Below are positions 3,959-23,892 of a stretch of 25,422 nucleotides of DNA, piece by piece (position 1 is the stretch's first letter; each line of letters starts with the position of its first letter). The notes beneath the pieces were generated by a model. The model saw nothing but the letters and a program-made list of their open reading frames with translations, searched no databases and had not been told where the DNA came from. The translations under genes and the position numbers were made by a program. The DNA lies in the UHGV virus genome UHGV-0247665. One strand, given 5' to 3'. Source of the stretch: a virus.

Positions 3959-3970
3959 GTGACATGTCAC
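3959..3970. repeat. 12-bp perfect palindrome GTGACATGTCAC (copy 1)
   Basis: Exact match; contains the TGA stop of the lipoprotein gene. Confidence 0.6.
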
Positions 3971-18362: not shown

Positions 18363-18655
18363 TCCTGTTCACTGGCCTCTTTGGCCATCTTCAAATACTG
18401 TTCAGGGCAATGCGCCATAACGCGCTGAAACAGTTCCAGCGCCAGATTGCGTTGCCCCTCATTAAATGCCATTGCCATAGCATCCATCGGAGAGATAGCG
18501 GAAAACACCCGGCCTTTCTCCAGCACCGACCAGACAACGCGACGCCCCTGTTCACTGCTCATGACAAAGCAAATGTCATCAATTTCACGCTGTGCCATGT
18601 CACGTTGCTTACGGGCGTTTTCTTCTTTCAGTTGATCGTCTTCGTAATCTGTCAT
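18359..18655 (-). CDS. Hypothetical head-morphogenesis protein (98 aa)
   Basis: ORF track. 4-nt overlaps with both the portal stop and the scaffold start. Confidence 0.55.
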   Translation of the reverse strand: MTDYEDDQLKEENARKQRDMAQREIDDICFVMSSEQGRRVVWSVLEKGRVFSAISPMDAMAMAFNEGQRNLALELFQRVMAHCPEQYLKMAKEASEQE

Positions 18656-20345: not shown

Positions 20346-20552
20346 TTACTGACCAAGCAGCGTTTTACCGCTGGTATTAGCGGTTGATGTGTCGCCCTGA
20401 GAACCGGTAAGCAGCGTAGAACTACGACCAGCAGCAGCGCGACGGCGACGTGTTTCTTCGTCGCGGGCATCAACAACGGCGGCATCCTGCTCCTGTGGTG
20501 CTGCCTGAACTTCTGGTGTTGCAGGCACTGACGGTGAGCTACCCATGCACAT
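20346..20552 (-). CDS. Small hypothetical protein (68 aa), low complexity
   Basis: ORF track. Its start context CGGAGTCATTGAT-ATG is near-identical to the portal context CGGAGTCATTGAA-ATG. The overlapping 79-aa alternative frame is rejected. Confidence 0.5.
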   Translation of the reverse strand: MCMGSSPSVPATPEVQAAPQEQDAAVVDARDEETRRRRAAAGRSSTLLTGSQGDTSTANTSGKTLLGQ

Positions 20553-20642
20553 ATCAATGACTCCGTACGCAATTAAATTATCACCAATTTAACCACATAT
20601 GATTTATTTATCGTAGATAGTTGACATTTAACGCATGAATTA

Positions 20643-20657
20643 TTACCTTTCAGGTAA
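20643..20657. promoter_or_regulatory. TTACC-N5-GGTAA palindromic motif copy (ATTACC-tttca-GGTAAG)
   Basis: Intergenic, between the 68-aa/portal gene start and the tRNA; a TTGACA hexamer lies at 20621-20626. Confidence 0.5.
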
Positions 20658-20979
20658 GTAAAGTGTTCATTCCGGTTATTAACCTGACTGGCTTATCGTT
20701 AAATTGAACAGGTGGAGTGAGCTTTTATTTTGAGCAGTACGGCGTATGGCACATGCGCCGATAGCGGTCTGGATACGTTTAAGGGGCACCCTCCCTTGCT
20801 CGGGCAAACGAACCAGGTAGCCGGAATGTGCAAGTCGAGCGGTTTTATTCCGCGCACGGGGATTCACCATCCCGGCGATTCGGTGTGACGCCTCGGAAGA
20901 GACGAGGGTACAACGATGAGAGCATTTATGGAGCCGCGACAAAGTGTGGCGCCTTAACAGGCTAAGTGCTCTCAGCGTT

Positions 20980-21056
20980 GTGGCATTAGCTCAGTTGGAC
21001 AGAGCAACCGCCTTCTAAGCGGTTGGTCGCAGGTTCGAATCCTGCATGCCACGCCA
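20980..21056 (+). tRNA. tRNA-Arg (anticodon UCU), 77 nt with encoded CCA
   Basis: Folded by hand: 7-bp acceptor stem GTGGCAT/ATGCCAC, D-arm, anticodon stem ACCGC/GCGGT with loop CTTCTAA (U33, anticodon TCT, A37), T-arm GCAGG-TTCGAAT-CCTGC, discriminator G, CCA. Close to the E. coli argU-type tRNA. Confidence 0.92.
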
Positions 21057-21099
21057 GAATCACGCCTAAGGACCGTGATGCCAGAAGTTCCAGGTGCTT

Positions 21100-21141
21100 G
21101 GCGGTGATGGTTTCCCTTGAAGGACTATCACCGCCCTTTTT
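21100..21141 (+). terminator. Intrinsic terminator downstream of the tRNA (9-bp stem GGCGGTGAT/ATCACCGCC, 18-nt loop, CTTTTT)
   Basis: Inverted repeat at 21100-21108 and 21127-21135 followed by a T-run. Confidence 0.5.
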
Positions 21142-21219
21142 ACAGCAGGACGCCATTGCGATGACTTCATGCTGTAAACCCGTACAGCCACGGAAGGCAT
21201 AACTCATTGCTTCCAGTTC

Positions 21220-21243
21220 GCCCGGTTCGCCGGGCATTTTTTT
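21220..21243 (+). terminator. Terminator-like hairpin (GCCCGG-TTCG-CCGGGC then ATTTTTTT) immediately upstream of the 118-aa gene SD
   Basis: 6-bp GC stem with a UUCG tetraloop and a 7-T run; the downstream SD AAGGTGA begins at 21244. Confidence 0.45.
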
Positions 21244-21254
21244 AAGGTGAGATT

Positions 21255-21611
21255 ATGAACGACCAGCAAATCGAAAAAGAAATCGTTGAGAAAGGCAAAA
21301 CCGCTCCGCGAGTTACGCCTCAATATATCGAAAGCATCATTCTTGAAGAGCATTTCTTTACTGCTTATGACGGCATTCGTGCTGCCAATATGGGCGTTGG
21401 CGATACGTGGACAGCGCATAAATCTACAGACCTCCTTACTTTCTGCGTACTGGTGCTGAAGAATGGCTTCACCGTCACCGGAGAGAGTGCCTGTGCAAGC
21501 CCGGAAAACTTTGATGCAGAAATTGGTCGGAAAATTGCCCGGCAGAATGCTGTAAACAAAATCTGGATGCTTGAAGGTTACTTGCTGAAGCAGAAGTTAA
21601 GCGAGCAATAA
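21255..21611 (+). CDS. Small conserved phage protein (118 aa); tentatively N4 gp49 / Sf6 gp66-like family
   Basis: ORF track; SD AAGGTGA. The family assignment is recalled from the motif FCVLVLKNGFTVTGESACASPENFDAEIGRKIA and is unverified. Confidence 0.65.
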   Translation: MNDQQIEKEIVEKGKTAPRVTPQYIESIILEEHFFTAYDGIRAANMGVGDTWTAHKSTDLLTFCVLVLKNGFTVTGESACASPENFDAEIGRKIARQNAVNKIWMLEGYLLKQKLSEQ

Positions 21612-21615
21612 CACC

Positions 21616-21627
21616 GTGACATGTCAC
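21616..21627. repeat. 12-bp perfect palindrome GTGACATGTCAC (copy 2)
   Basis: Exact match; 5 nt after the stop of the 118-aa gene and adjacent to the terminator hairpin. Confidence 0.6.
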
Positions 21628-21631
21628 AAAC

Positions 21632-21659
21632 AGCCAGCTCATAGGCTGGCTTTGTTTTA
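21632..21659 (+). terminator. Intrinsic terminator (AGCCAGC-tcatag-GCTGGCT then TTGTTTTA) between convergent genes
   Basis: 7-bp stem with a T-rich tail on the plus strand; lies between the 118-aa gene stop and the large terminase stop. Confidence 0.55.
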
Positions 21660-21701
21660 TCCTCATCAGAGGATATCAACGACATTATCCCCACCAGCGG
21701 A

Positions 21702-23177
21702 TTAAGCATACGGGTCATAATCTGTGATGGCCTTGCCTTGCTGGTTCTGCTGCCCAGGAATTCGCAGACGCTTCGACACAGGGAAAGCAAACGTCAGCAA
21801 TAGCGCATCGCCTTTACCAGGAGAACGCCCAAGCCGCTCCTTGATATCTTCCTTCGGTTCGATAACGATTTTACCGTCCACGCGAACTTTGTACTCTGCC
21901 GCCGACAGGTCGTCCGCTGTTTCCTGGTCATCCAGCATGCCGCCCAGCCTCAGCCATGTCTTGCATGAGTTGAACATCTCCCCACGCTTGTTAAGCATCT
22001 GCGGGTCAGTAGACGCGCCACCGAACGGAACAAGTTGCCATGTACGCCCCCAACCATCACCGATTGACTTCAAACCGGTTCCGTAACCGAAGTCGATGAA
22101 CACCGCGTCAGCCTGGTACTGGTCTTCAAAGTCAGCGATACGCTTCGCCATAATCAGATCGTCAGTGGTCTTGTTGCCGGTCCACAGCACCTTACTGTGC
22201 AGCCCCTGCCGCAGATATATCACCGCGTCATCAACACCGGAGTATGCCGGGTCAACGCCGATTATCACCGGAGCATGTGCAACCTGCGCAGCGGTGACCA
22301 CCCGTTTCATTGCCTCGTCAGTAAGTCCGGTAGGGATAAACTGCAATTCAGATGCATCCGGGAATATGCCGCGCACACGGATTTTAACGAAGTCGCTATC
22401 TTCCCCGTAGTCATCAACCCATTTCTGCAACTGCTGTTTGTTAGTGCCTTCCACCGTCCGGCTGTCAATCTGCGCAGTTTTCCAGCGGTGTTTGTATTTG
22501 CGGAAACATTCGCGAAAACGCCCGGTATTACGTGTAGGGTTTCCGAACGCCACCCAGATAATCTCAGTGTCTTCGTCCGTAAGCGCACCCTCAGCAACTT
22601 CCCACACCAGATCCGCAATGTTCGACGCTTCATCGAATACCACGATGATGCGTTTGCGCTCGTTGTGTAGTCCGGCGAATGCCTCAGTGTTGTGCTCAGA
22701 CCAGGGGATTGCGTCAGCTCGCCACCGCTTGTCGTGCCCAGGATCATTGCTGTACATCGCAGTAGCGGTACAGGTAAACCAGTCTTTCGTGATAGCAAGG
22801 TTCGACCACTTGATAATTTCCGGCCAGGTCTTCGTTCGTAGCTGGTTGTCGGTGTTGGCGGTCACCACGACCTTACAATCCTCGCAAGTGGACATGCCCC
22901 AGTTGATCAGCATTGAGATGAATGCGGATTTACCAATACCGTGACCCGAAGCACGTGCCAGCATAAGCGGCTGATAGCGCGTCTCTGGATTCTGCAGGTG
23001 ATCACGTATCTCTCGGAACGCATCAGCCTGCCACTGACGTGGGCCGGTAGCATGTGCCAGTTCAGTCCCCTCTTCCCCCCACGGGAACGCATAGAGGGCA
23101 TAGCCAAGCGGATCGTGAGTGAACCCTGCAATATCCTCGATCAACTGCTCTTCAGGAGATAACGCTGTATCTGTCAC
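21702..23177 (-). CDS. Terminase large subunit (491 aa)
   Basis: ORF track. Walker A-like GHGIGKSAF, Walker B-like IIVVFDEAS, and C-terminal nuclease-type motifs (GVDPAYSG, FIDFGYG). 4-nt overlap with the small-subunit gene. Confidence 0.9.
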   Translation of the reverse strand: MTDTALSPEEQLIEDIAGFTHDPLGYALYAFPWGEEGTELAHATGPRQWQADAFREIRDHLQNPETRYQPLMLARASGHGIGKSAFISMLINWGMSTCEDCKVVVTANTDNQLRTKTWPEIIKWSNLAITKDWFTCTATAMYSNDPGHDKRWRADAIPWSEHNTEAFAGLHNERKRIIVVFDEASNIADLVWEVAEGALTDEDTEIIWVAFGNPTRNTGRFRECFRKYKHRWKTAQIDSRTVEGTNKQQLQKWVDDYGEDSDFVKIRVRGIFPDASELQFIPTGLTDEAMKRVVTAAQVAHAPVIIGVDPAYSGVDDAVIYLRQGLHSKVLWTGNKTTDDLIMAKRIADFEDQYQADAVFIDFGYGTGLKSIGDGWGRTWQLVPFGGASTDPQMLNKRGEMFNSCKTWLRLGGMLDDQETADDLSAAEYKVRVDGKIVIEPKEDIKERLGRSPGKGDALLLTFAFPVSKRLRIPGQQNQQGKAITDYDPYA

Positions 23178-23787: not shown

Positions 23788-23802
23788 TTACCGTTTTGGT
23801 AA
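23788..23802. promoter_or_regulatory. TTACC-N5-GGTAA palindromic motif copy within a cluster of GGTAATAGT repeats
   Basis: GGTAATAGTTACC-gtttt-GGTAATAGTACC lies 20-40 nt upstream of the small terminase ATG. Confidence 0.5.
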
Positions 23803-23813
23803 TAGTACCATGC

Positions 23814-23839
23814 AAAATAAAGCCGCCATAGTTGGCGGC
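23814..23839 (-). terminator. Intrinsic terminator on the minus strand between the 115-aa gene and the terminase operon (GCCGCCA-n4-TGGCGGC then UUUAUUUU)
   Basis: 7-bp GC stem at 23822-23839; the minus-strand U-run corresponds to plus-strand A-run 23814-23821. Confidence 0.5.
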
Positions 23840-23880
23840 AGTATTCAAAACCCATCAAATTCATCATGCATAATCTACTC

Positions 23881-23892
23881 GTGACATGTCAC
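23881..23892. repeat. 12-bp perfect palindrome GTGACATGTCAC (copy 3)
   Basis: Exact match; contains the TGA stop of the 115-aa gene, upstream of the terminase operon. Confidence 0.6.

Follow-up and report, generated by a model that had tools for sequence, protein, structure and literature searches.

Organization of the locus

The window analyzed here (UHGV-0247665, the whole stretch of 25,422 nucleotides) is a Uetakevirus prophage of the epsilon15/phiV10-like type. Placed antisense between its terminase and portal genes is one plus-strand transcription unit, in which a σ70-type promoter is followed by a structured RNA, a tRNA-Arg(UCU) gene, a hairpin trailer ending in a hairpin designated hp2, and a cargo slot. 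The promoter, TTGACA-17-TACCTT (20621–20649, plus strand), is the best σ70-like match of the region with 9 of 12 positions and a weak −10 element (TACCTT), and it is kept in 56 of 70 related loci. The conserved RNA element (20737–20979, plus strand) lies upstream of the tRNA gene (20980–21056, plus strand; anticodon UCU), which was identified by ARAGORN and scores 73.3 bits against the Rfam tRNA model. The preliminary description of this DNA, which concerned the region starting immediately after the tRNA gene, is silent on it. In this genome the slot is occupied by a gene for a 118-residue protein (21255–21611, plus strand). Its convergent neighbor is the large terminase gene terL (21702–23177, minus strand), an open reading frame annotated with this function in phiV10, ZX5, and others. 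A 1.2-kb stretch spanning the 118-residue gene is found with at least 80% coverage in 223 of 5,426 complete E. coli genomes.

Hairpins between the tRNA and the cargo gene

The trailer begins just 3' of the tRNA with a small conserved hairpin, h0 (21059–21079, plus strand), whose pairing across 64 sequences amounts to 99.4%. In a Stenotrophomonas phage, too, the RNA element is followed by a hairpin resembling h0. The first predicted intrinsic terminator, hp1 (21100–21141, plus strand), has a 14-bp stem followed by CUUUUU and reads GGCGGTGATGGTTT-CCCTTGAA-GGACTATCACCGCC at 21100–21135, then CTTTTT. Its fold energy is −22.8 kcal/mol (z = −5.4), and it is 93.5% paired among related sequences, with two compensatory pairs. 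An extra 79-residue gene begins right after the U-run of hp1 in Klebsiella phage BUCT711. Two further plus-strand hairpins, hpS (21139–21178) and hpX (21192–21214), occupy positions 21139–21214 between the terminators. The last hairpin, hp2 (21220–21243, plus strand), has the form GCCCGG-UUCG-CCGGGC + A + U7, with six GC pairs and a UUCG loop at 21220–21235, the U7 run at 21237–21243, and a fold energy of −12.7 kcal/mol. Its pairing stands at 99.7% in 64 distinct related sequences, with two pairs switching from GC to AU and from GC to CG.

The preliminary description had placed two terminator-like hairpins before the open reading frame, and both are present (21100–21135 with U5, and 21220–21235 with A and U7). 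The second adjoins the Shine–Dalgarno (SD) sequence as described, the U-run ending at 21243 and the SD starting at 21244. The five terminator-like sites of the window compare with 3.6 ± 2.0 in shuffled sequences, a count that alone is not above chance. The hairpins are instead taken to be real because they are conserved with compensatory changes: 27 alignment cells are changed on both sides of a pair, compared with 3.6 in shuffles (0 of 500 shuffles). Both hp1 and hp2 thus have the predicted form of intrinsic terminators, a GC-rich stem-loop with a U-run, maintained in relatives. No invariance is claimed for the spacer at 21147–21178, because the IMG/VR loci were selected by the pattern of that spacer; in independently found loci it varies or is absent.

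Two other motifs of this region were considered and set aside. A σ32-like promoter inside hp1 (CCCTTGAA ... CCCTTTTTA), judged by eye and with a short spacing, is not retained in the Salmonella and Klebsiella versions and was dropped. The 3' arm of hpX carries a 12-mer, AUUGCUUCCAGU, resembling RyhB; mimicry of RyhB was rejected, because a 12-mer identity of this kind is no more than chance would give in a comparison with 4,227 families and because the seed is not conserved.

The 118-residue protein belongs to the Acb4 family

The open reading frame matches Pfam family PF13876 over the entire profile (positions 1–82 of 82) with 118.7 bits (cut-off 27) and an E-value of 1.6e-34, and its more than 8,000 homologous clusters all belong to PF13876. 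This family is the Acb4 family, for which 1,331 homologues have been reported (bioRxiv 10.1101/2024.12.30.630793). The protein also matches the sequence of Acb4 from Bacillus phage SPO1 (PDB id: 9E4W) at ∼24% identity. An AlphaFold2 model has a pLDDT of 88.9 and fits the fold of the Acb4 protomer, with N-terminal helices, a three-stranded sheet, and long C-terminal helices. The top 13 matches of a Foldseek search of the PDB are all chains of 9E4W, with a probability of 1.0 and target-normalized TM-scores of 0.64 to 0.73; the next match has an E-value of 0.15, leaving SPO1 Acb4 as the only significant fold match.

The ligand pocket of SPO1 Acb4 comprises K36, F48, E49, V56, Y57, F62, N63, I66, T70, and K81, of which all but K36 and K81 are covered by the alignment. 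In the alignment F48, F62, and I66 are kept as F72, F86, and I90, and N63 corresponds to D87, whereas E49, V56, Y57, and T70 are replaced by T73, C80, A81, and I94, respectively. Because several ligand-contact residues differ, ligand specificity is not readable from the sequence. All eight Acb4 homologues tested bind 3'3'-cGAMP, and the homologues from Gram-negative phages in that panel bound 3'3'-cAA as well; the homotetramer that binds CBASS nucleotides, and the accompanying rescue, have been shown for SPO1 Acb4 and eight homologues only (bioRxiv 10.1101/2024.12.30.630793). The 118-residue protein is accordingly predicted, from sequence and model, to be an Acb4-type cyclic-dinucleotide sponge with anti-CBASS function. 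By homology it would form a tetramer that sequesters the cyclic dinucleotides of CBASS and would thereby block abortive-infection signaling.

A framed slot for exchangeable cargo

Related loci were gathered by a spacer sequence pattern, and the figures that follow, counted among the matches listed, are not frequencies in a random sample. In the window the SD AAGGTGAG spans 21244–21251 and the ATG is at 21255; the translation-initiation region AAGGTGAGATT-ATG (21244–21257, plus strand) is conserved and common to unrelated cargos. An AAGGTGA-type SD stands directly after the U-run, with an ATG 11–16 nt downstream, in 90 of the 117 loci among the matches listed. The same U-run heads at least 12 unrelated families of open reading frames and an empty slot among these matches. 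Acb4 is the cargo in 44 of the 117 loci listed, a Tad2-like protein (PF11195, E = 4e-26) in 7, and an Acb2/Tad1 hairpin protein (PF24729, E = 3.6e-17) in 1; about 10 further cargo families without known function occur in these 117 loci, a 140-residue family without known function occupies 20 loci, and the slot is empty in phiv142-3 and 7 other loci, again among the matches listed. An 88-residue cargo domain is also found in the slot fused to a Tad2-like domain and apparently, to judge from a shared PHROG family, to an Acb4-like part. Despite the differing cargos, the tRNA, hp1, hp2, the U7 run, and the SD are identical or compensated in SPN9TCW, PAS61, TL-2011b, EC.W1-9, and Klebsiella phages.

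The frame of the slot consists of the U-run with the SD AAGGTGA, an ATG, a single open reading frame, its stop codon, usually 4 nt, the 12-bp palindrome GTGACATGTCAC, 4 nt, and a terminator. The palindrome (21616–21627), the right border of the slot, is present in 82 of the 90 class-A loci among the matches listed, in 78 of them exactly 4 nt past the stop. Further copies lie at 3959, 18592 (one mismatch), and 23881, so that the window holds three exact copies and one with a single mismatch against 0.07 expected. The closing terminator (21632–21659, plus strand) has its stem at 21632–21651 followed by TTTGTTTT; it is weakly bidirectional, is convergent with terL, and is annotated as the terL terminator in phiV10, and it would shield terL as well as close the cargo unit. 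The copy of GTGACATGTCAC and the third terminator that had been noted 3' of the stop codon are therefore where they were described.

Judged from these comparisons, hp2 is a module boundary: the conserved terminator of the upstream promoter/RNA/tRNA unit and the fixed left edge of the cargo slot. The terminator touches the SD because the RNA/tRNA gene upstream terminates at that edge. The preliminary description had instead suggested conditional read-through or attenuation at the hairpin; an attenuator belonging to this particular gene is difficult to reconcile with the occurrence of the same hairpin, U-run, and SD before at least 12 unrelated open reading frames, before an empty slot, and before cargos that bear their own promoter. 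Nor is the hairpin specific to the gene, since in a Buttiauxella prophage (locus L155) there is no slot or cargo and hp2 directly adjoins the end of terL. Attenuation as proposed there remains unproven. Known anti-defence families alternate in the interval from terL to the portal gene, which makes this site a phage anti-defence hot spot, and the 118-residue gene is a new member of a known protein family sited in it.

The upstream promoter and the structured RNA element

A palindrome, TTACCTTTCAGGTAA (20643–20657), overlaps the −10 element of the promoter of the unit. It has 7 matches in the window compared with 0.52 expected, and phiV10 contains 14 intergenic copies, 4 of which flank the repressor gene. 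Class-B cargos have their own promoter bearing the same palindrome. This distribution of the motif marks it as a putative operator to which the phage repressor would bind, and by which the unit would be controlled; a literature search for Uetakevirus operators, termini, or transcription yielded nothing usable.

The RNA element has no Rfam family at E ≤ 10. An Rfam search of 20540–21700 and 17 further loci, at the gathering score and at E ≤ 10, returned only tRNA, C4 and isrK elsewhere, and matches at chance level. RNAalifold analysis of 31 non-redundant copies predicts 32 pairs, of which 12 show compensatory changes. The element is also found in lambdoid phages, in Stenotrophomonas phages, and in genomes of 24 GTDB species. 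In a lambdoid phage it opens the leftward early operon directly after a cI-like gene. In a Stenotrophomonas phage it lies between a cI/Cro-type pair and the downstream genes, is followed by a terminator, and is flanked by boxB-like CCGG-GAAAGA-CCGG hairpins; in a Stenotrophomonas phage without the tRNA it ends in a terminator similar to hp2.

Expression of the cargo gene

No usable promoter was found between the tRNA and the ATG by either a consensus scan or a relaxed scan; the best promoter-like match in this interval has 7–8 of 12 positions, and its −10 element would fall on the start codon. The preliminary description had made its reading depend on the interval between 21243 and 21255, and no promoter lies there, only 11 nt separating the U-run from the ATG. 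Constrained folding likewise gave no antiterminator alternative to hp2, the best competing structure reaching only −46.5 compared with −56.7 kcal/mol, 10 kcal/mol weaker. Because neither a promoter nor an antiterminator structure was found, we infer that cargo expression must come by read-through from the upstream promoter.

The explanation that we consider probable is that hp2 is the terminator of the upstream unit and that a promoter-less slot, here with an Acb4-type cargo, is expressed by read-through under the control of the repressor. According to this explanation hp2 would act primarily as the terminator of the RNA/tRNA gene, and polymerases starting at the upstream promoter would read through hp1 and hp2 to produce the cargo mRNA, so that cargo output would be a low, fixed fraction of RNA/tRNA output. 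Since the −10 element overlaps the palindrome that marks repressor operators, the unit is probably silent in the lysogen and would be switched on early after infection or induction, the time at which an anti-defence sponge would be needed. If expression is conditional, control is more likely to sit at the upstream promoter than at the hairpin. Very little cargo mRNA might remain after two good terminators in succession. The perfect SD/ATG frame persisting before many cargos may, in turn, reflect a regulated read-through that is more efficient than simple leakage.

Regulated antitermination, which extends the idea of the preliminary description, is an alternative that we regard as unlikely. Here hp1 and hp2 would be conditional terminators, a structured RNA or a bound phage factor would render RNA polymerase terminator-resistant, and the cargo would be on only in the lytic program, as for lambda N/nut, Q/qut-tR', and HK022 put. 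The promoter-less cargo with its SD against a terminator in 90 of the matches listed would be consistent with such a system, as would the covarying RNA between promoter and terminators and the placement of the same RNA beside cI-like and cI/Cro-type genes in the lambdoid and Stenotrophomonas phages, in the latter with its terminator and boxB-like hairpins. However, the RNA element has neither an Rfam family nor sequence similarity to put in the HK022 immunity region, and a Pfam search downstream of the element in other phages revealed no N-like antiterminator. Were antitermination processive, polymerase would in addition run past the terminator that closes the cargo and enter terL in the antisense direction. 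Furthermore, hp2 is retained where nothing downstream is to be expressed (the empty slot, L155), and class-B cargos come with a promoter, an indication that high read-through may not be dependable.

A broader version of this idea, speculative and rather doubtful, is that the covarying RNA of ∼240–300 nt and the terminators following it constitute a cis-acting control module, operating by RNA-based antitermination or processing, that heads early operons of lambdoid phages, a Stenotrophomonas siphophage, and Uetakevirus. In Uetakeviruses it would control an exchangeable anti-defence cassette that lacks a promoter, so that sponge production would be confined to times of phage activity. If so, a new regulatory RNA would have its output stage in the terminator at the SD, and the open reading frames of the same frame without an assigned role would be new anti-defence proteins.

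It is also conceivable, but improbable, that the 3' trailer of the tRNA is itself an Hfq-type small RNA (hairpin, AU-rich linker, and terminator with U7) released from the tRNA precursor in the manner of 3'ETS-leuZ, with AUUGCUUCCAGU as a RyhB-core seed, hp2 as its terminator, and the contact with the SD incidental. Positions 21189–21243 have a weak Rfam match to RyhB, with a 12-nt identity to the RyhB core and the U7 terminator, and CATTGCTTCCAGTT, which adjoins hp2 on its 5' side, is found again in prophages from several genera, including some whose trailer is otherwise different. The RyhB match (RF00057), however, has an E-value of 2 and 18.1 bits against a gathering score of 55 bits. The 12-mer is part of a hairpin arm. 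In ZX5 its alteration is offset by a compensating change; Salmonella and Klebsiella phages have a different sequence there, and in PAS61-type phages it is deleted.

A cis-acting attenuator or riboswitch, in which the leader (21139–21243) would toggle between terminator and antiterminator with a ligand, a leader peptide, or temperature as the trigger, appears highly improbable. The leader is strongly folded (z = −3.7) and its hairpin-rich spacer is conserved, yet the best alternative pairing of the 5' arm of hp2 is the weak one given above, and hpX, the region that would supply the partner, is deleted in PAS61-type phages that retain hp2, the SD, and the cargo. Both hp1 and hpS are missing from loci L143, L155, and L159, and neither a riboswitch family at E ≤ 10 nor a leader open reading frame ending at the hairpin was recognized. 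The attenuation suggested by the preliminary description finds no competing fold here.

Equally remote is an ordinary lysogenic-conversion moron, transcribed constitutively in the prophage from a promoter belonging to the gene and shielded by terminators against phage transcription. The gene is variably present, terminator-flanked, and opposite in orientation to the late genes, but no promoter fits before its ATG, and the only upstream promoter bears the operator-like palindrome. A lysogen would gain no obvious benefit from a sponge directed against the CBASS of its own host, and N4 Acb4 has been reported to be capable of triggering Panoptes, a system that senses sponges (bioRxiv 10.64898/2026.06.04.730250).

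Implications

The results provide a predicted function for a gene labeled "Gp49 family protein" or "hypothetical" in thousands of enterobacterial genome records, and identify the terL–portal position of epsilon15-like phages as a compact, precisely framed anti-defence slot. The approximately 10 cargo families of the same frame whose roles are not known are ready candidates when new immune-evasion proteins are sought. Contact between a terminator and an SD does not by itself indicate attenuation; in this locus it reflects a module boundary. By-products of the analysis are an undescribed structured phage RNA and a probable set of Uetakevirus repressor operators.

Comparison with known systems

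With 3'ETS-leuZ trailers the locus shares a tRNA transcript whose structured 3' trailer ends in an intrinsic terminator, and with lambda tR'/Q and HK022 put it shares genes behind terminators that require read-through, although no similarity of sequence or model to any of the three was found at this locus.

A moron in the sense of Hendrix and Juhala is reportedly an extra gene with its own promoter and terminator that is expressed from the prophage. The term, used in the preliminary description, holds in so far as the 118-residue gene is an accessory gene bracketed by terminators, present or absent among collinear phages. As with lambdoid morons, it is inserted between conserved genes that are adjacent in close relatives and has a terminator downstream. 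The strict sense does not apply, since the gene lacks its own promoter; in further contrast to lambdoid morons, the upstream promoter appears to be repressor-controlled, and the likely function of the gene would serve the phage during infection rather than the lysogen.

Integron gene cassettes provide a functional analogy only, in that one fixed site accepts, interchangeably, open reading frames of unrelated function that lack promoters, depend on a promoter upstream, and are each followed by a conserved palindromic element. Unlike an integron, the slot has no integrase or attC-like site, its palindrome is 12 bp, and each phage carries one cassette. No evidence of site-specific recombination at the slot was found, and cargo is probably exchanged by homologous recombination in the conserved flanks.

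The 118-residue protein resembles SPO1 Acb4, of the PF13876 "N4 Gp49 / Sf6 gene 66" family, in being a small phage protein of the same Pfam family and predicted fold, with a conserved ENFxxEIGR core and the three hydrophobic or stacking pocket residues F72, F86, and I90. It differs in having an additional helix at the N terminus and a middle segment that is hypervariable, in T73 at the position of the guanine-reading E49, such that specificity may differ, and in being encoded by a temperate podovirus in a promoter-less slot.

A hot spot of N4-like phages holds Acb4, Tad2, Tad3, and Sequestin (bioRxiv 10.64898/2026.06.04.730250). The Uetakevirus slot is similar in that alternative nucleotide-sponge genes (here Acb4, Tad2-like, and Acb2/Tad1-like) and small open reading frames without a known role occur at one position. 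It differs from the N4-like hot spot in usually containing a single open reading frame, in being precisely framed by the terminator U-run and SD on the left and by the 12-bp palindrome and terminator on the right, and in its placement behind an RNA/tRNA gene, where it runs antisense inside the late operon of a phage that is temperate.

Architecture and setting of the locus

The features attributed to this locus in the preliminary description are all present. The tRNA-Arg(UCU) gene occupies 20980–21056, so that position 21057, taken there as the start of the locus, is the first base 3' of the tRNA gene. It is followed by two terminator-like hairpins: hp1 (21100–21135), with a 14-bp stem of −22.8 kcal/mol and then CUUUUU, and hp2 (21220–21235), GCCCGG-UUCG-CCGGGC, with −12.7 kcal/mol and then A and U7, the last U being 21243. 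The SD AAGGTGAG starts at 21244, the 118-codon ORF runs from the ATG at 21255 to 21611, and the palindrome GTGACATGTCAC (21616–21627) and a third terminator (21632–21651) follow. Upstream of the tRNA lie a conserved, covarying structured RNA element on the plus strand (20737–20979) and the nearest credible promoter, the sigma70-like TTGACA-17-TACCTT (20621–20649). The region contains 5 terminator-like sites versus 3.6 ± 2.0 by chance; since this is no excess, conservation was tested instead.

The phage is a Uetakevirus (epsilon15-like). The 1.2 kb around the 118-aa gene matches an E. coli phage fragment at 100% identity, phiV10 and O157 typing phages 9 and 10 at 90%, and prophages of many E. 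coli genomes at >95%, with at least 80% of its length covered in 223 of 5,426 E. coli genomes. The late-strand order in phiV10 is terS, terL, the tRNA/118-aa-gene region on the opposite strand, a small ORF, and portal, and the tRNA and 118-aa gene thus form a small island antisense to the late operon. The hairpins have no U-run when read on the minus strand and should therefore not stop late transcription; the terminator at 21632–21651 is weakly bidirectional and is annotated in phiV10 as the terL terminator.

Copies of GTGACATGTCAC occur at 3959–3970, 18592–18603 (1 mismatch), 21616–21627, and 23881–23892, in settings that comprise the end of the final late gene, where a minus-strand terminator follows shortly, the position after the cargo, and the region upstream of terS. 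Because the phiV10 GenBank record begins and ends at the exact centre of the terS-proximal copy, between GTGA and CATGTTAC, the palindrome may be a packaging-related site.

The second hairpin in related phages

Salmonella phage SPN9TCW keeps the tRNA, hp1, hp2, U7, and AAGGTGA, its hp2 reading GCCCAC-UUCG-GUGGGC with two compensated pairs, and its cargo ORF is unrelated to the 118-aa gene and ends in a stop followed by GTGACATGTCAC and a different terminator. The same conserved left frame precedes a 140-aa ORF in PAS61 and a DUF2829 ORF in Klebsiella phage ST512-KPC3phi13.3; the slot of phiv142-3 is essentially empty, holding an 8-codon mini-ORF only. In TL-2011b and EC.W1-9 the same U-run is followed by a longer spacer with its own promoter. 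In a Buttiauxella prophage (L155) hp2 directly adjoins the terL 3' end, with neither cargo nor second terminator, and in a Stenotrophomonas siphophage a similar terminator stands behind the RNA element, again without such a cargo and also without the tRNA. Homology of Sf6 to the 118-aa gene starts 3 nt 5' of the ATG, with no such hairpin upstream.

From the IMG/VR matches listed, 120 contigs were picked by the sequence pattern of the spacer between hp1 and hp2. In an alignment of 64 distinct trailers, hp2 is 99.7% paired and shows GC-to-AU and GC-to-CG switches, hp1 has two compensatory pairs, and both-side-changed cells number 27 versus 3.6 in shuffles. Among these pattern-selected matches, 117 loci had enough sequence for classification. 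The SD directly follows the U-run in 90 of the 117 (class A), and the called ATG lies 11, 12, or 16 nt past the U-run in 87 of these 90, the automatic call having taken an upstream in-frame-shifted ATG in the remaining three. The palindrome follows the stop in 82 of the 90, at exactly 4 nt in 78. The other 27 of the 117 listed loci have a different junction and their own promoter (class B), and a post-stop palindrome was found in none of them (0/27). This comparison of relatives assigns hp2 to the upstream unit, as its terminator, and makes it the fixed left border of an insertion slot.

Assignment of hp2 to the 118-aa gene itself was rejected, as the same hairpin stands before unrelated ORFs, before an empty slot, and at terL in L155.

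Klebsiella phage BUCT711 (2330–2590) has a second cargo position, where a 79-aa ORF with its own SD right after the hp1 U-run closes with its own terminator 5' of the spacer and hp2; a terminator followed by an SD is thus a recurring junction. The sequence CATTGCTTCCAGTT (21203–21214) has a 12-nt identity to the RyhB core and lies directly 5' of hp2 in prophages of several genera (L140, L141, L152, L155, L159), even where hp1 and hpS, a further hairpin between hp1 and hp2, are missing. Its Rfam score as RyhB does not come near the threshold, and Salmonella and Klebsiella phages carry variants of the motif.

Expression of the cargo

The preliminary description had read the hairpin against the SD as conditional read-through or attenuation, and had named a promoter between 21243 and 21255 as evidence to the contrary. 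In the stretch from the tRNA to the ATG no sigma70-like promoter was found, the highest-scoring candidates reaching 7–8/12 with a −10 on the start codon; cargo transcription must therefore, we infer, pass the structured RNA, tRNA, hp1, and hp2. The cargo mRNA would then start at the 20621 promoter, which is conserved in 56 of 70 loci, and read through all four. A search for a fold able to compete with hp2 found none, the best alternative being 10 kcal/mol weaker, and the sequence for that alternative is deleted in PAS61-type phages. The interpretation in the preliminary description is supported in part: conditional expression is plausible, but what abuts the SD is a module border rather than a proven attenuator, and control is more likely exerted at the upstream promoter, putatively by a repressor.

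The palindrome TTACCTTTCAGGTAA overlaps the −10 of that promoter. The motif TTACC-N5-GGTAA has 7 copies in the window versus 0.52 expected, at promoters across the genome (sites include 1548, 1928, 2962, 20643, and 23788), and one copy closely follows the −10 of the C4/isrK/antirepressor operon. It is also present in class B cargos' own promoters. phiV10 has 14 copies, all intergenic except two at 87/105 in the annotated 5' part of terS, and two lie on each side of its repressor gene p40. On this distribution, the motif is, in the simplest reading, probably the operator set of the repressor, dispersed across the genome in a P1-like arrangement. Through this putative operator the RNA/tRNA/cargo unit would be shut in the lysogen and open on infection or induction. 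Such timing would suit an anti-defence sponge, and silence in lysogeny would neither leave the host disarmed nor set off sponge-sensing systems such as Panoptes (bioRxiv 10.64898/2026.06.04.730250).

A Bro-N antirepressor gene (ORF 2056–2895) is directly preceded and overlapped by an isrK-like sRNA (65.5 bits) together with a C4 antisense RNA (79.5 bits) at 1979–2160 on the plus strand; this set is a P1/P7-type immI module in this podovirus. The isrK/C4 pair is also present in lambdoid phage 1720a-02.

The structured RNA (20737–20979) has no Rfam match. It measures ∼240–300 nt around the core GGTAGCCGGAATGTGCAAG and has been kept in the Uetakeviruses of Escherichia, Salmonella, and Klebsiella; a Stenotrophomonas phage and 24 species-representative genomes of GTDB have it as well, and located copies include L009 2499–2790, L011 2441–2680, and L136–L159. 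A lambdoid phage copy lies immediately 3' of a cI-like gene and has its own operator-flanked promoter. For 31 non-redundant 5' domains RNAalifold predicts 32 pairs, 12 with compensatory changes; the 3' domain forms one long hairpin whose insert varies, and is followed by tRNA-Arg or by a non-tRNA sequence starting GTGGTGAAT, and then by terminators. That the element heads early operons with terminators behind it would fit regulated antitermination, an explanation of low probability. Against it, the element has no similarity to HK022 put, and a processive mechanism would not spare the terminator of the cargo itself and would run on into terL.

The 118-aa protein

The 118-aa protein covers the whole Pfam model PF13876 ("N4 Gp49 / Sf6 gene 66") with E = 1.6e-34. 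According to bioRxiv 10.1101/2024.12.30.630793, PF13876 is the Acb4 family, with 1,331 members reported; 3'3'-cGAMP was bound by 8/8 tested homologues, and 3'3'-cAA also by those from phages of Gram-negative hosts. Direct sequence comparison matches residues 61–103 to a 9E4W chain (E = 0.006). The structure predicted from an alignment of 56 homologues has a pLDDT of 88.9, and the 13 best PDB matches of the model are without exception chains of 9E4W, the SPO1 Acb4 structure (probability 1.0, TM 0.64–0.73 on the target), no other match in the PDB search falling below E = 0.15. Profile and predicted fold together add the gene to the known Acb4 family as a new member. The ligand pocket is conserved in part only: F72, F86, and I90 are retained, and E49, Y57, and T70 of SPO1 Acb4 are changed to T73, A81, and I94, respectively.

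The Acb4 homologues of the slot (L016–L135) are mosaics, with two N-terminal types and an almost invariant C-terminal 60 residues. Their N- and C-terminal parts are conserved, and the middle segment is of variable length and hypervariable at residues ∼35–60, a pattern that suggests one surface region subject to diversifying selection or to recombination.

Cargo types in the slot

Among the matches listed, the slot holds Acb4 homologues at 44 loci (31 distinct proteins), a 140-aa family (phrog_4846) at 20, a class B family of 200–290-aa membrane/coiled-coil proteins at 20, Tad2-like cargos (PF11195, E 4e-26) at 7, a 143-aa family at 5, one Acb2/Tad1-hairpin protein (PF24729, E 3.6e-17), and several singletons; eight slots are empty.

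A stand-alone 88-aa cargo (L056) is homologous to the N-terminal domain of a 173-aa Tad2-like cargo (L013/L090) and also matches the N-terminal part of phrog_9467, the C-terminal part of which matches Acb4. By the fusion logic of 10.1101/2025.07.12.664507, this domain, with the motif ...YxVxYxDGYxSxSPxExFE..Y, qualifies as a candidate for a new sponge or anti-defence domain. Empty slots (e.g., L005 ∼1845–1885) hold a mini-ORF MK[Y/D]EFDGF, homologous (20/27 nt identical) to the 8-codon mini-ORF MHDEFDGF on the minus strand at 23800–23880, between the palindrome and terS, with a terminator hairpin 5 nt later. The latter may encode a leader peptide coupled with termination within the leader of the late operon.

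The presence of three different known nucleotide-sponge families at one position marks an anti-defence hot spot. As an anti-defence slot, this Uetakevirus site belongs to a general class that was already known; N4-like phages have a comparable one, recently described as an "anti-signalling hotspot" (bioRxiv 10.64898/2026.06.04.730250).
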